A DNA stretch of 32,000 nucleotides from Candidatus Baldrarchaeota archaeon. GTDB taxonomy: Archaea > Asgardarchaeota > Baldrarchaeia > Baldrarchaeales > DXJG01. The first letter of the stretch is position 1, and every line of letters begins with the position of its first letter. Below are positions 21,190 through 27,966 of the stretch, piece by piece. The notes beneath the pieces are model-generated. The model saw only the letters and a list, made by a program, of their open reading frames with translations, had not been told where the DNA came from and did not search any database. The translations under genes were made by a program, and so were the position numbers. The stretch is taken from NCBI GenBank assembly GCA_019056805.1, contig DXJG01000002.1:463103-495102 (forward strand). The letters run 5' to 3'.

Positions 21190-21822
21190 TCAAAGTTTTT
21201 CCATAACCTTTTTTACAAGTTCTCTCACAGCTTTTCTCCCGCCTAAAAACAAAGCTAATTCTGCAAGTCTTTCTACATGTCTTTCTAAGACAGGCATTAT
21301 TATATCTTTTGATTGAGTATCTAAGCTTGTTACGAGGTCTATTAATTCGCTTAAGGTATCAAAAACGCTTCTAAACATGTCATAAACATACATAGGAGCG
21401 TCTGAAACTCTTCTCTTCGCAATTAGATTCCCAACATTATAGTAAACTTCTTTAACAACAATTTCAGGAGAAGCACCATTTCCAAGTTTGTTGAGACCGT
21501 TCTTTAGGATTTCCTCTACGGTATTTTGCATTTGCCAAATCTGTTCATTGCTTTTACTTTTGCTCTCAAAAAATACCGCTAACGCATAGTGTTCAACTTC
21601 TTTTGTTTTTCCAAAGAAAATACATGCTATCATACCTAAATCTGGAAAAAGAGTTTGTACACAACCTTCAGCTTCGCTCAAATCTTTTGCACCACTGCTT
21701 ACCCAAACATCCAAAGCCATATTCCAAAGTTTCTCTCGAGGGATAAATCCCTCGGGAAACATAGCCTCCGCTATAGGTCCCAGTTTATAATCAAACTTAA
21801 TAAGAAGTACACCTTTGAGCAT
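21190..21822 (-). CDS. Longin/uDENN-like domain protein, paralog 1, with C-terminal helical domain
   Basis: MLKGVLLIKFDYKLGPIAEAMFP has the hydrophobic strand plus FDxxxGP motif; the apparent order is beta-beta-alpha-beta-beta-beta-alpha-alpha. Clear homology to 23601-24251. The fold call is inference. Confidence 0.6.
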   Translation of the reverse strand: MLKGVLLIKFDYKLGPIAEAMFPEGFIPREKLWNMALDVWVSSGAKDLSEAEGCVQTLFPDLGMIACIFFGKTKEVEHYALAVFFESKSKSNEQIWQMQNTVEEILKNGLNKLGNGASPEIVVKEVYYNVGNLIAKRRVSDAPMYVYDMFRSVFDTLSELIDLVTSLDTQSKDIIMPVLERHVERLAELALFLGGRKAVRELVKKVMEKL

Positions 21823-21840
21823 TTATAAGCCACACACCAA

Positions 21841-23247
21841 TTATTCTATCGGAACGAGACGAGTTTCAATATAACCTTTCTCAGTGCTTACGGTCATAAC
21901 ATACATTTCGGTCCTAGGTATAAGTCCGTAAATTACAGTAGTTCCTTCAATATTTTCCAACTTAAAGTGGGTAGTAGCCATATGGCAAAGCGTTCTAATA
22001 AGTTTCTGACCATATTTTACTATAGCTAGAACCAAAAGATTTCTAGTCCTTGAAAGTATAGACAACTGACTCAGAAACTTGTAAACAGTTTGAGGATCAT
22101 ATATATGTTCCACCGTATCCACACCAATAATAAAAGCCAAGTCCCTGCTACCAACTTTTTCTCTTAATTCATTTACTGCTTTCGAAGCTATTTGATGTGC
22201 TTTAGCAACATCTCCTCTCGGTATTTTTAAAATATAGGGCTTTTCAGCTTCTGCTTCTTCAACCTCTAAAATCCTAACGCACGCATTAAATTTTTCTTCT
22301 CCAACAAAGGGAATAATCCACTTTTCTAACTCTTCGACAGGTTCTCCTTCACATGGAATAATCATCACTGGTATATTATGTTGGACAAGATTTGCCACAA
22401 GAGGGGCTACAAGCCAAAGATAGTATGGTCCTACTTCTTCTCCGATTTCTAAGAGGTTAAAGCTTCCTCTTCTATAACCTCCAGCCGTTAAATTGTTTAA
22501 ATCTTCCACTCCCGTTGAAATTCTCTCCTTACTCGTGATTAAAGGCGGACTGACAACTTTCTCAGGGAAGTAAATTGGTTCATCTCTGAAGTGCGTAAAT
22601 CTTCCATCTTTTAAAGTAAAAAGAAATGTAGGTTTCTTAATTTCTTCCCCCCTTATTTTCTCAAATATAATTTTTCTAATAAGTCTCCCTTGGATAATTT
22701 CACGAGTTAAAGTTACGATCCCATCGACTAGATAATCTATAGTTAACGCTTCATATCTTTCTACAACAAATATCACATTAGAATTGGTAGATTCTCCCAA
22801 TTCTAATAAAGCTCTTTCTATTCTTAAATTTTCTAATGGAATATCCAAATTAGTTTTTAATGCGTCTAAACTATCGATCACGATTGTAACTGGTCGCTTT
22901 TTTGAACTCTCAATTTTAGCATATAAAGCTCTTAAGAAATCAGGCTCGTCTGAATATTCAAAAAGTATATATTCTGGAGCTGACACAGGAATCTGGGGTT
23001 TTCTAGCATCTAAAATGTTTTCTTCGGGAATACTATCTTTAATCCAAGGAAACTGCCTTAAAAGTTTCTTGCTTGACACACGTGTAGAAACATAATAGCT
23101 TGTTCCATTTATTCCCATCTTCTTAATTAATTCCAAAGCTAAAGTTGTTTTTCCCGTACCAGCTAAGCCTTTTATTAATAGAGAAAAACCACCCTTGTTT
23201 AAAGCACTAATCAGTTCTTTTGGCACACCAAAAGAAACACTAACCAT
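21841..23247 (-). CDS. GvpD/KaiC-family tandem P-loop ATPase (active N-terminal domain, degenerate C-terminal domain)
   Basis: FSLLIKGLAGTGKTT, YVSTR, Walker B IVIDSLD and EKIRG. The second repeat starts STGVEDLNNLTAGGYRRGS but has no GKT. Confidence 0.85.
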   Translation of the reverse strand: MVSVSFGVPKELISALNKGGFSLLIKGLAGTGKTTLALELIKKMGINGTSYYVSTRVSSKKLLRQFPWIKDSIPEENILDARKPQIPVSAPEYILFEYSDEPDFLRALYAKIESSKKRPVTIVIDSLDALKTNLDIPLENLRIERALLELGESTNSNVIFVVERYEALTIDYLVDGIVTLTREIIQGRLIRKIIFEKIRGEEIKKPTFLFTLKDGRFTHFRDEPIYFPEKVVSPPLITSKERISTGVEDLNNLTAGGYRRGSFNLLEIGEEVGPYYLWLVAPLVANLVQHNIPVMIIPCEGEPVEELEKWIIPFVGEEKFNACVRILEVEEAEAEKPYILKIPRGDVAKAHQIASKAVNELREKVGSRDLAFIIGVDTVEHIYDPQTVYKFLSQLSILSRTRNLLVLAIVKYGQKLIRTLCHMATTHFKLENIEGTTVIYGLIPRTEMYVMTVSTEKGYIETRLVPIE

Positions 23248-23600
23248 AGATAGTCACCCTTATTCTTGGAAATAAACCGTTTAATTATTTTTTCTTTTAG
23301 TTTTATAAAGTCTTAAATATTTATTGTATTGATAGATTTTAAATTTTCGGTATTTACACCTAACTTCGTAATTTAGACCGTTTAAAGACGAATGACGACT
23401 TAAAAACCAGATAACCTTCAATGTTTACAAATAATATAATTTCACTTAGCTGGGATTTTAAAAAAGCTAATTCTTCCTTTACAAAGTGTTAGAGGCTTAT
23501 AGTAAAATTAATATTGGGTTGAAATTAAATGTAGTATCATGTATAATAACATTGTACTTAAAAATCGAGGGGGTTCAAAAGACGTCGTGAGGGAGCTTTC

Positions 23601-26024: not shown

Positions 26025-26501
26025 ATGATACCTGTTTCGTTTCATAATGATGTGAAGGGATATGTTATGAAAATCAAAGGAAATTATAACAGCAAACTAA
26101 AGGGCATTGTTTTAGGACGTTTATTACCAACCTTACCAAGTCCGCATTTCATATATCCTAACGATTTTTTAAATACTAAAGAGCTCAGGTACGTTATTAT
26201 GCAGGCATGGTTAAACTATGGTAGCACAACATGGACGGATAAACCTGAATTTGTATTTGTACACTATAACTGGCTTAAAATGATAGGATGCGCATACTTT
26301 GATAAATCAAATCATCTTGGAGAATATACACTTATTTGCATGTTTGATGAAAATGAAGGCGTAAAAGTTTGGAAGTATCTTCCGAAAATTAAAGAGTTCT
26401 TGGAAAAGGCTAGCCAAAAAATACGACACGAACAGAACATGGTCACAATAATAAAAAACTTATACAGGGAACTTTCAGAGAAAATATCACAATTAGAATA
26501 A
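26025..26501 (+). CDS. Stand-alone longin/uDENN-like protein, paralog 3 (no C-terminal helical domain)
   Basis: From LKGIVLGR onward it aligns by eye with paralogs 1 and 2 (YPNDFL, MQAW, MIGCAYFD, GEYTLICMFD, KVW, KNLY). Start could be ATG 26067. Confidence 0.5.
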   Translation: MIPVSFHNDVKGYVMKIKGNYNSKLKGIVLGRLLPTLPSPHFIYPNDFLNTKELRYVIMQAWLNYGSTTWTDKPEFVFVHYNWLKMIGCAYFDKSNHLGEYTLICMFDENEGVKVWKYLPKIKEFLEKASQKIRHEQNMVTIIKNLYRELSEKISQLE

Positions 26502-26635
26502 TTTTATTAAATGATAAAGCGGTAAGTAAAGTATATTTTAGATTGCTAGTTTTGACAAAACGTTTTCATGTAGTAACATTTATTATTACCATTGTACTAA
26601 TTTATAGATATACTCTATTACAAATAATATGTGGG

Positions 26636-27454
26636 ATGCTAAAATTGCCGTTGCAAGACCTTATTGAAACACTGGAACGATTAGGATTCACAAAAAATGA
26701 AGCAAAAGTATACTTAACATTAGTTATGACAAGAAATCCCCTCAATGCATCAGAAATTAGCAGGAGATCAGGCGTACCAAGAGCAAACGTCTACGAAACC
26801 TTAAATAAACTAGTGGGGAGAGGATTCGTTTTAAGAGAAGCTGCAGGAAGAGGAGCAAGATACGTAGCAGCATCACCCGACCAGATATTCGAAGCTCTCA
26901 GAGAAGAACATAAAAGATATATTCAACTGGTTGAAGAAGCAAGAAAAACATTTGACCAGCTTATGTCAAAAGTTACAAGACCGTTTCCAGGAGAAGCAGC
27001 ATGGCTTGTAAGCGGAGAAACCAGAATCGACAACATTCTTAAAGATATTTTAGATACTGCCACACAAAGATTTACATCCTTAATGACACCCGATATAATT
27101 ACAAGAAACGGAGAAGGAATCTTTTCAATGCTGAAGAGGAAGGCAGAGGATGGCGTTGAAATTCTCATTTCACTTAAAATTACAAGTGATATTCTTGATA
27201 AAGTTAAGGAATTAGCAAATTCCGTGTCAGTTTTTCATTGGCAACTTGGAGAAATCCCCATGGGATGCTACGTTAGTGACGGTTCCCGTTGCTTAATGAC
27301 CCTCGTCGGAAAATGGGCTCCAATATTAACATACGACATAGGTATTTGGACCGAAAACCCGGTCTACGCAAAGTCCTTCGAATATTTAACTGAAAAACTT
27401 TTAACATTAAATGTACCCTTTAAGAAATATCTTGAGGAGGAAGAAAAGGATTGA
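26636..27454 (+). CDS. TrmB-family transcriptional regulator (wHTH plus PLD-like effector domain)
   Basis: LERLGFTKNEAKVYLTL, ASEISRRSGVPRANVYETLNKLVGRGFV and YVAASPD; C-terminal YVSDGSRCL...WTENP. ATG 26636 preferred over 26543. Confidence 0.9.
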   Translation: MLKLPLQDLIETLERLGFTKNEAKVYLTLVMTRNPLNASEISRRSGVPRANVYETLNKLVGRGFVLREAAGRGARYVAASPDQIFEALREEHKRYIQLVEEARKTFDQLMSKVTRPFPGEAAWLVSGETRIDNILKDILDTATQRFTSLMTPDIITRNGEGIFSMLKRKAEDGVEILISLKITSDILDKVKELANSVSVFHWQLGEIPMGCYVSDGSRCLMTLVGKWAPILTYDIGIWTENPVYAKSFEYLTEKLLTLNVPFKKYLEEEEKD

Positions 27455-27966
27455 GTGGAGAGTACATCCTAAAAGTTGTTGTAGTAGGAGACTTAGCTGT
27501 AGGAAAAACAAGTTTAGTCATTAGATACGCAGAAAACAAGTTTCCAACAAGTTACAAACCGACAATAGGAGCAGACATAATGGTTAAAATGGTGGATCTC
27601 AAAGGAAAGAAAATTAGACTTGCGATCTGGGATATAGCTGGACATGAAACTTTCCAGAAGATAAGGCGTTACTATTATCAAGGAGCTGCAGGCGCGCTAA
27701 TACTTTATGATGTAACAAATCCAGAATCATTTGAACACGTAAAAGATTGGTACGATGATGTAGTCACTCATTGCGGAAAAATACCCATTGTCCTAATTGG
27801 AAATAAAATAGATTTGAAAGATCAAAGAAAAATAACAACAGAACAAGGTGTGAAAAAAGCTGATGATATGGGTCTAGTAAAATTCATCGAAACAAGTGCA
27901 AAAACCGGTACAAATGTACACAACGCCTTTGTATCAATAATAGAAGAAGTGCTAAAAATATCATAA
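27451..27966 (+). CDS. Rab-like small GTPase (minimal G-domain)
   Basis: GDLAVGKTS, PTIGADI, WDIAGHE, YYQGA, LYDVT, GNKID and ETSAK. The TTG start overlaps the TrmB TGA stop (TTGA). Confidence 0.93.
   Translation: MSGEYILKVVVVGDLAVGKTSLVIRYAENKFPTSYKPTIGADIMVKMVDLKGKKIRLAIWDIAGHETFQKIRRYYYQGAAGALILYDVTNPESFEHVKDWYDDVVTHCGKIPIVLIGNKIDLKDQRKITTEQGVKKADDMGLVKFIETSAKTGTNVHNAFVSIIEEVLKIS

Follow-up and report, generated by a model that had tools for sequence, protein, structure and literature searches.

Folliculin (FLCN), NPRL2, SMCR8 and C9orf72 share with one class of Asgard longins a 'GP motif' at the β1-β2 turn, and GTPase-activating protein (GAP) activity has been proposed for the Asgard members of this class (PMC12290439, Traffic 2025). 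More generally, Asgard archaea possess dozens of Ras-, Rab-, Arf- and Rag-like GTPases along with many longin and roadblock proteins, almost none of which have been assigned partners because operons are rarely shared, the GTPases generally lying outside operons with longins (PMC10933270). Here, we consider a 6.8-kb stretch (positions 21190-27966) of a 32,000-nucleotide window of a Candidatus Baldrarchaeota genome (the source genome, G000; 1.92 Mb in 18 contigs, 91% complete), in which three small longins, labeled LngA, LngB and LngC (together with their relatives, the Lng family), are encoded in the company of a KaiC/GvpD-type ATPase, a TrmBL2-like regulator and a Rab-like GTPase. An earlier reading of this DNA, hereinafter the original prediction, treated these as one signaling neighborhood; all the genes that it listed are present where it had placed them, as judged from open reading frames (ORFs) and Pfam matches (Table 1). 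We favor, at somewhat better than even confidence, a different reading, namely that the stretch brings together two signaling modules, each conserved in its own right, in a juxtaposition peculiar to the genus and broken up by housekeeping genes (HIT, UppP and a probable C/D-box small RNA (sRNA)). The first module comprises the KaiC-superfamily ATPase and the longins, and the second the TrmBL2-like regulator and the Rab-like GTPase; the two are side by side only in the source genus.

The Lng proteins resemble the Asgard GP-motif longins, FLCN, NPRL2, SMCR8 and C9orf72 in their longin fold, in the F/W-D-x3-G-P signature at the β1-β2 turn and in an NPRL2-like PEDFI segment. They further resemble them in forming paralog pairs, which suggest heterodimers, and in that their nearest relatives are fused to, or adjoin, Ras- and Rag-like GTPases. 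In contrast to that class, they lack a conserved arginine finger and a DENN domain, and are stand-alone proteins of 145-240 aa with a longin domain that may or may not carry a three-helix tail. Moreover, their KaiC/GvpD-type ATPase neighbor has no counterpart in the eukaryotic longin complexes.

In haloarchaeal gas-vesicle systems, GvpD (PF07088 and PF20440) works against the activator GvpE. The ATPase of the window is likewise a two-domain P-loop ATPase that matches both GvpD Pfam models and is encoded beside a partly helical protein of ~210 aa; unlike in the GvpD system, this neighbor is a longin and not GvpE, and the ATPase is one of ~10 GvpD-like paralogs in the genome. Archaeal KaiC-like ATPases have reportedly been cast as 'signal transduction hubs' by Makarova, Galperin and Koonin, writing in mBio in 2017, and the presence of several KaiC-family paralogs per genome with varied small input and output partners is in keeping with that picture. 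In MglA-MglB and Rag-Ragulator, a small GTPase is bound by a platform of dimeric longin or roadblock proteins, a mode of action that is only expected here: unlike in those systems, no GTPase is co-transcribed with LngA, LngB or LngC, and the contact between platform and GTPase is one that we infer. As for the second module, the regulator shares with Thermococcales TrmBL2 (5bpd) the TrmB winged helix-turn-helix (wHTH), a near full-length alignment and the lack of a sugar-binding subdomain, but differs in that its gene is coupled in translation to that of a Rab-like GTPase; this pairing recurs in five Asgard families and, to our knowledge, is not known for TrmBL2. The GTPase itself departs from Rab GTPases in having neither a prenylated C-terminal Cys motif nor the catalytic switch-II Gln. 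The original prediction did not recognize the combination as a described system. The folliculin-type class of Asgard longins has already been published (PMC12290439), but we found no description in the searchable literature of either the longin-ATPase link or the TrmBL2-like/Rab-like pair, nor of longin, Roadblock or small-GTPase partners of KaiC-family proteins.

Two separately conserved gene linkages

The tandem KaiC/GvpD ATPase of the original prediction is upheld with respect to its two RecA-like halves and its Pfam matches, all above cut-offs (GvpD_P-loop, E 4e-13; KaiC, E 1e-10; GvpD_bR2, E 2.5e-8), but Walker A (GLAGTGKTT) and Walker B are found in the N-terminal half only, the second half being degenerate and devoid of Walker A. 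Residues K26, G30, G32, K33, D125 and E163 are invariant in 52 homologs, and the GvpD-like family as a whole is widespread in archaea. There are no kaiA/kaiB or gvp genes in the window, and GvpA (PF00741) has no match in the 91%-complete source genome, the control genomes being equally without a match. LngA and the ATPase gene share a strand, with LngA 18 nt downstream; this layout is operon-like, and the two genes are probably co-transcribed. The ATPase-LngA unit is divergent from LngB, and this arrangement is kept in the genus. Prediction of a complex between the ATPase and LngA returned a score of 0.00 in two runs made without controls, an outcome that speaks neither for nor against contact.

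Strong matches to the Lng profile are confined to five Asgard families: f1 (that of the source genus), its sister family f2, f6, f8 and f13. In three of these, f1, f8 and f13, a KaiC-superfamily ATPase lies beside the Lng gene or genes in an operon-like setting. The co-directional run of f8 (five genomes in two genera), with gaps of 28 nt to ~100 nt, encodes a KaiC (~240 aa), a double KaiC (466 aa), an Lng protein, a GNAT acetyltransferase and another Lng protein, while the order in the f13 genomes G015 and G025 is Lng, Lng, KaiC; both families, then, have tandem Lng paralog pairs. The pair of G015 is flanked on the side opposite the KaiC gene by a Gtr1/RagA-like GTPase gene, and that of a further f13 genome, G035, adjoins a Gtr1/RagA-like G-domain gene without an adjacent KaiC gene. 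In a further metagenomic lineage, a GvpD-like ATPase gene is found 1.5 kb from an Lng gene and divergent from it, as with LngB here. Since matches to the KaiC domain make up less than 1% of the genes (12-26 per genome, ~0.5-0.9%), direct Lng-KaiC adjacency in three families is very unlikely to have arisen by chance (~1e-5 by a rough estimate), with the reservation that different KaiC subfamilies are involved.

The regulator combines a TrmB wHTH (E 3e-22, its sole Pfam match), a coiled coil and a TrmBL2-type C-terminal domain. Positions 7-247 of its family profile can be aligned to Pyrococcus TrmBL2 (5bpd; E 5.6e-19); of the NCBIfam models, the TrmB and TrmBL1 equivalogs reach only its N-terminal part, far below cut-offs, and no sugar-binding effector domain is recognized by Pfam, NCBIfam or profile alignment. 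Hence, the description of this protein as a TrmB sensor is not sustained. Its start was set at 26636 because the orthologs have 271-272 aa. The TTG start of the GTPase gene overlaps the TGA stop of the regulator gene by 4 nt (TTGA), and the overlap is kept in the genus. Beyond the genus, 11 loci with regulator orthologs of 30-54% identity were fetched, from f2, f3, f9 and f18, and in 9 of these a Ras-family gene comes directly next; with f1, the pair is thus present in five Asgard families. No Lng match was found beside the pair in these fetched loci, no regulator ortholog was found in the Lng-bearing f8, and f13 yielded no close ortholog, only weak TrmB-family matches (E 1e-9 to 1e-13). On the evidence of these gene neighborhoods, the TrmBL2-like/Rab-like pair is best described as an independent and widely conserved two-gene module.

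The soluble GTPase has a Rab-like G domain, as had been proposed, with Rab2B and Rab8A as its best solved relatives (E 1e-43) and Rab35 and Rab1 also near the top. In its switch II (WDIAGHE), the catalytic Gln is replaced by His, a change confined to f1 and f2, the TrmBL2-linked GTPases of the other families having kept the Gln. There is no C-terminal Cys in this protein, which ends ...EVLKIS, or in any aligned TrmBL2-linked ortholog. The Rab-like GTPases examined in the source genome are likewise without CAAX motifs, despite the presence of a gene for a type II CAAX prenyl endopeptidase (Rce1-like) at window positions 8970-9794 (-). The second Ras-family GTPase noticed originally is also present, at 4206-5045 (+); this 279-aa protein has a C-terminal extension of ~90 residues, acidic and then helical, and its gene adjoins that of a P-type cation ATPase and is unlinked to the longin cluster.

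Table 1. Coordinates of the features in the 6.8-kb stretch
Feature	Position	Strand	Length and basis
LngA	21190-21822	-	210 aa; no Pfam or NCBIfam match
GvpD/KaiC-like ATPase	21841-23247	-	468 aa; Pfam
AT-rich divergent intergenic region	23248-23600	.	353 nt, between the ATPase-LngA unit and LngB
LngB	23601-24251	+	216 aa; no significant Pfam match
Box C/D sRNA, probable	24281-24334	+	box-like motifs; between LngB and HIT
HIT hydrolase	24396-24893	-	Pfam
UppP/BacA	24988-25863	+	Pfam
LngC	ORF 26025-26501, probable start ATG 26067	+	158 aa as ORF
TrmB-family HTH regulator, TrmBL2-like	ORF 26543-27454, real start ATG 26636	+	Pfam
Rab-like Ras-family GTPase	27451-27966	+	Pfam Ras E 8.5e-60

That the cluster is not one operon had been recognized from the start, HIT, UppP and an sRNA having been named as interruptions. 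This sRNA has no support from Rfam, no family of which is found in the window at gathering thresholds, but is a probable box C/D sRNA in that ATGATGA (C), CCGA (D'-like), ATGAGG (C'-like) and CTGA (D) boxes can be read in it. A tRNA scan of the window found none. A T-rich stretch follows the LngC stop and TATA-like elements lie ~30 nt before the regulator ATG; this spacer therefore suggests that LngC and the regulator-GTPase pair are separately transcribed.

The conserved gene linkages bear directly on the proposal that a single circuit for sensing nutrients or energy is made up of the eight genes, with the ATPase and heterodimeric longins governing the Rab-like GTPase and the TrmB-family protein providing the sensor or the output. 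We consider this unlikely. In its favor, the entire arrangement is kept in the genus, LngC is directly upstream of the regulator/GTPase pair, and the GTPase, being without the catalytic Gln, may need a partner for GTP hydrolysis. Further, the longin-GTPase fusions and KaiC-GTPase-Roadblock clusters described below show the three protein types cooperating elsewhere, and one 518-aa protein from G148 (G148:C3, L048:1477-3033) combines an Lng-like longin (hhalign 96.6%, E 6e-10) with a TrmB-like region, of HTH and coiled coil, that is homologous to the window regulator (95.5%, E 1.4e-8). However, the synteny within the genus also takes in topoisomerase I, HIT, UppP and geranylgeranyl reductase; as the whole region is syntenic, its conservation there is uninformative on function. 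Beyond the genus, the modules are conserved separately, which speaks against a single circuit: the pair is found without an adjacent longin in f2, f3, f9 and f18, and Lng-KaiC pairing in f8 and f13, where no close regulator ortholog was found. Thus, comparison across Asgard neighborhoods, proposed as a check, returned the longin-ATPase linkage in three families but the regulator/GTPase pair beside longins in the source genus only. In G004, of the sister family f2, the orthologs of the longins and of the regulator/GTPase pair are scattered over four contigs. Its three Lng genes pair one-to-one with LngA, LngB and LngC in a tree with long branches (support 82/65 for the LngC pairing, and a separate, well-supported LngB clade) and lie on three contigs beside unrelated genes, namely those for IleRS, MoaC and an actin homolog. 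Moreover, the regulator shows no sensor domain, and the longin-TrmB fusion turned up only once in 400 genomes. We had entertained this fusion as a widespread architecture and rejected it, there being one full-length case: its C-terminal domain is common in large Asgard proteins (matched in 207 of the 400 genomes), and the other matches reached that domain only.

As a separate observation, the actin homolog (Pfam Actin, E 3e-94) is co-directional with the LngC-type ortholog of G004 and lies 273 nt upstream of it (G004:C70, L066:462-2408).

Fold and motifs of the Lng longins

The three small proteins are true paralogs, as claimed originally (BLASTP E-values of 1e-27 for A/B, 4e-17 for B/C and 2e-10 for A/C), and a genome-wide search shows that they are the only Lng copies of the source genome. 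LngA and LngB are 28% identical and alike in architecture. LngC is a longin domain only, the sequence stopping there; it probably starts at ATG 26067 because its ortholog P0019 has 144 aa, in agreement with that start. The family is rare, with 14 clusters at 50% identity in 1.84 billion representatives, and none of the three proteins has a significant match to a Pfam or NCBIfam model.

The longin/uDENN-like fold that had been suggested for them is supported by an AlphaFold2 model of LngA, built from a 35-sequence alignment (mean predicted local distance difference test score (pLDDT) 86), LngB and LngC being placed by homology. Residues 1-139 adopt the order β-β-α-β-β-β-α-α, which is exactly that of the longin fold, and residues 144-209 form a C-terminal three-helix extension. 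In Foldseek searches against the PDB, the top match of LngA is a Lokiarchaeota longin domain (8yqg; E 3.5e-5, template-modeling score by target 0.69), followed by NPRL2 in GATOR1 structures, DENND10, FLCN, TRAPP longins, yeast Npr2/3 and DENND1B, with probabilities of 0.96-1.0 for NPRL2, FLCN, DENND10, TRAPP and DENND1B. The matching AlphaFold DB clusters bear the names 'Folliculin/SMCR8 longin domain-containing protein', 'Nitrogen permease regulator 2-like' and 'UDENN FLCN/SMCR8-type'. At the sequence level, the longin part of the family profile finds a single match among PDB sequences, residues 9-69 of NPRL2, with which it has the pattern F-x3-LGP-x6-PEDFI in common. The GP motif reads FDYKLGP in LngA and FDSKLGP in LngB (family pattern FDxxLGP, with P16 nearly invariant across the family alignment), and its spacing equals that of NPRL2 FHPTLGP as well as that of C9orf72 W33-D34...G38-P39 as given in PMC12290439. 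In LngC, the motif is degenerate (LLPTLPSP), with the FD pair and the GP-motif Gly lost. Taken together, the model and these sequence patterns indicate that LngA, LngB and LngC are longins of the FLCN/SMCR8/NPRL2 (uDENN) type. They are fast-evolving, stand-alone members of the GP-motif class: the Lng genes are 64-73% identical between species of the genus, as against 92% for the regulator and GTPase genes.

The arginine fingers of the longin GAPs are NPRL2 R78, FLCN R164 and SMCR8 R147. We placed the corresponding position in the Lng family by alignment to NPRL2 and by the β4-β5 loop of the model. There is no conserved Arg in this loop, for which the family consensus is G-x-Y and the individual sequences are GKTKEVEH (LngA), DEDGNLGP (LngB) and DKSNHLGE (LngC). 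Nor is there a C-terminal DENN domain in LngA, where three helices follow the longin, or in LngC. Therefore, judging from the sequences of the loop, GAP catalysis by the folliculin/NPRL2 mechanism, which had been raised with the original prediction, is unlikely as such.

Longins, GTPases and KaiC domains in other contexts

The theme of longins, small GTPases and KaiC domains in one another's company, which underlay the original prediction, recurs elsewhere. In the nearest outgroup of the Lng family, proteins from four genomes (G144-G147) fuse an Lng-like longin to a Ras-family GTPase. G151 has a fusion of a longin with a Gtr1/RagA-like GTPase, whose operon also contains a Ras GTPase and a weakly KaiC-like ORF (phmmer E 4e-5, no Pfam match), and an outgroup protein of G169 scores above the Pfam Folliculin threshold. 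Such fusions of the nearest relatives with GTPases of the Ras and Rag types make a GTPase-related role for the Lng proteins plausible. The source genome itself encodes a 454-aa protein (P0160) whose N-terminal part is an Lng homolog (hhalign 85%, E 7e-6), has an Arg in the loop concerned ('ARGG') and is followed by a multi-pass membrane domain. Its gene is 122 nt upstream of that of a 308-aa Gtr1/RagA-like GTPase (G000:C15:55320-56246; the pair spans 55320-57732, -), making the two a candidate for an archaeal longin-Rag pair on the membrane.

A KaiC-centered version of the theme is seen in G010 (G010:C1:422000-433000; L085 5507-9141, -), in an operon for a KaiB/thioredoxin-like protein, a KaiC, a KaiC-GTPase fusion, a Roadblock/LC7 protein and a KaiC-like protein. 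The fusion has 379 aa and combines a KaiC-like domain with an Arf/Ras-like GTPase, and two Ras GTPase genes are nearby. In sister Baldrarchaeia (L082/L083/L084 5001-6994), a paralog of the window ATPase (43-45% identical) is followed 17 nt downstream by a small GTPase, at a locus that also has another GTPase and a longin ('u194'). This ATPase-GTPase pair sits between genes that are adjacent in the source genome (G000:C11:99380-102769) and looks like a two-gene cassette gained or lost. The u194 longin is also found in the source genome, beside a Ras-family gene (C11:101534-102769); its model (pLDDT 88) is that of a sigma-adaptin/TRAPP/Mon1-type longin with a helical tail. Genome-wide KaiC-Ras adjacency was dropped as an argument, no enrichment being visible by eye in five genomes.

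The GTPase neighbors bring up a further alternative, according to which the Lng proteins act on a Rag- or Arf-like GTPase as catalytic GAPs, in the manner of folliculin, GATOR1 or C9orf72-SMCR8, and have the ATPase as an incidental neighbor. The GP motif and the NPRL2-like N-terminus, the GAP activity proposed for Asgard GP-motif longins (PMC12290439), the Rag/Arf-like gene beside the Lng pairs of G015 and G035, and P0160 beside its Rag-like GTPase would all fit. We nevertheless regard it as quite improbable: the loop that holds R78 in NPRL2 is G-x-Y in the Lng consensus with no conserved Arg, LngC has in addition lost the FD pair as well as the GP-motif Gly, a DENN domain is missing, no Rag-like GTPase was found in two Lng-bearing genomes, and the ATPase adjacency in three families is unlikely as chance. 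Rag-like GTPases as obligate Lng partners were likewise rejected as a rule, none having been found with the query used in G004 and in G008 (of f6). It is just as hard to credit that the neighborhood is coincidental and the Lng proteins are generic small adaptors whose function involves neither GTPases nor the ATPase: their fast evolution relative to the regulator and GTPase genes in the genus, the dispersal of the G004 copies next to actin, MoaC and IleRS genes, and the general placement of Asgard GTPases outside longin operons (PMC10933270) would be consistent with it, but the repeated operon-level Lng-KaiC adjacency in three families and the GTPase fusions of the nearest relatives are not.

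Proposed mechanism and its implications

The two-module interpretation that we favor is built on what is shown above, namely the fold, the motifs, the paralogy and two conserved gene linkages. Several points weigh against it. The ATPase partners are non-orthologous, being GvpD-like in f1, a genuine double KaiC in f8 and a single-domain KaiC in f13; therefore, the linkage is to the superfamily and not to one protein. The Lng genes of G004, G008 and G035 have no adjacent KaiC gene, and Rag-like GTPases were not found with the query used in the Lng-bearing G004 and G008. In the source genome, a longin neighbors only one of the ~10 GvpD-like paralogs, and there is no consistent pattern of a small downstream partner for the others. 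Finally, the longin+TrmB-like fusion of G148 argues that LngC and the regulator may be functionally tied, and assigning them to different modules may be overly rigid.

Within the two-module interpretation, we propose that LngA and LngB, and perhaps LngC, form a homo- or heterodimeric longin platform for a small GTPase, as other longins do. As they have no arginine finger, the Lng dimers would act as a scaffold, a guanine nucleotide exchange factor (GEF)-like element or a non-catalytic partner, and not as arginine-finger GAPs; C9orf72, FNIP and NPRL3 are such non-arginine-finger partners in longin complexes. By analogy with the action of GvpD on GvpE, the ATPase may load, remodel or remove this platform using ATP. 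The client could be the Rag-like GTPase at G000:C15:55320-56246, already beside a membrane-anchored longin, or the Rab-like GTPase of the window. In the second module, the TrmBL2-like protein is probably paired with the Rab-like GTPase in a DNA-binding switch under GTPase modulation: the nucleotide state of the GTPase would modulate the regulator, or the reverse. LngC, encoded between the modules, may bridge them in the source genus, a bridge that the comparative data do not require.

A bolder proposal, which we hold to be possible but on the unlikely side, is that the KaiC/GvpD-type ATPases of Asgard archaea use ATP to regulate switches composed of a longin or roadblock platform and a small GTPase; in the source genus, LngC would connect this system to the TrmBL2-like regulator, as a chromatin or transcription protein whose DNA binding is set by the Rab-like GTPase. 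If true, eukaryotes would have no counterpart of this layer of GTPase control, the small GTPases of Asgard archaea would gain their first concrete wiring, and longins of the folliculin/NPRL2 type would have had a role before eukaryotes arose. The locus and its relatives offer testable pairings, namely the longins with KaiC/GvpD ATPases, the TrmBL2-like regulator with the Rab-like GTPase, and the membrane-anchored longin with the Rag-like GTPase. Should the ATPase-longin link prove physical, the ancestors of the eukaryotic nutrient-signaling GAP longins would have worked in an ATP-dependent archaeal hub, which bears on the origin of the Rag, folliculin and GATOR machinery.

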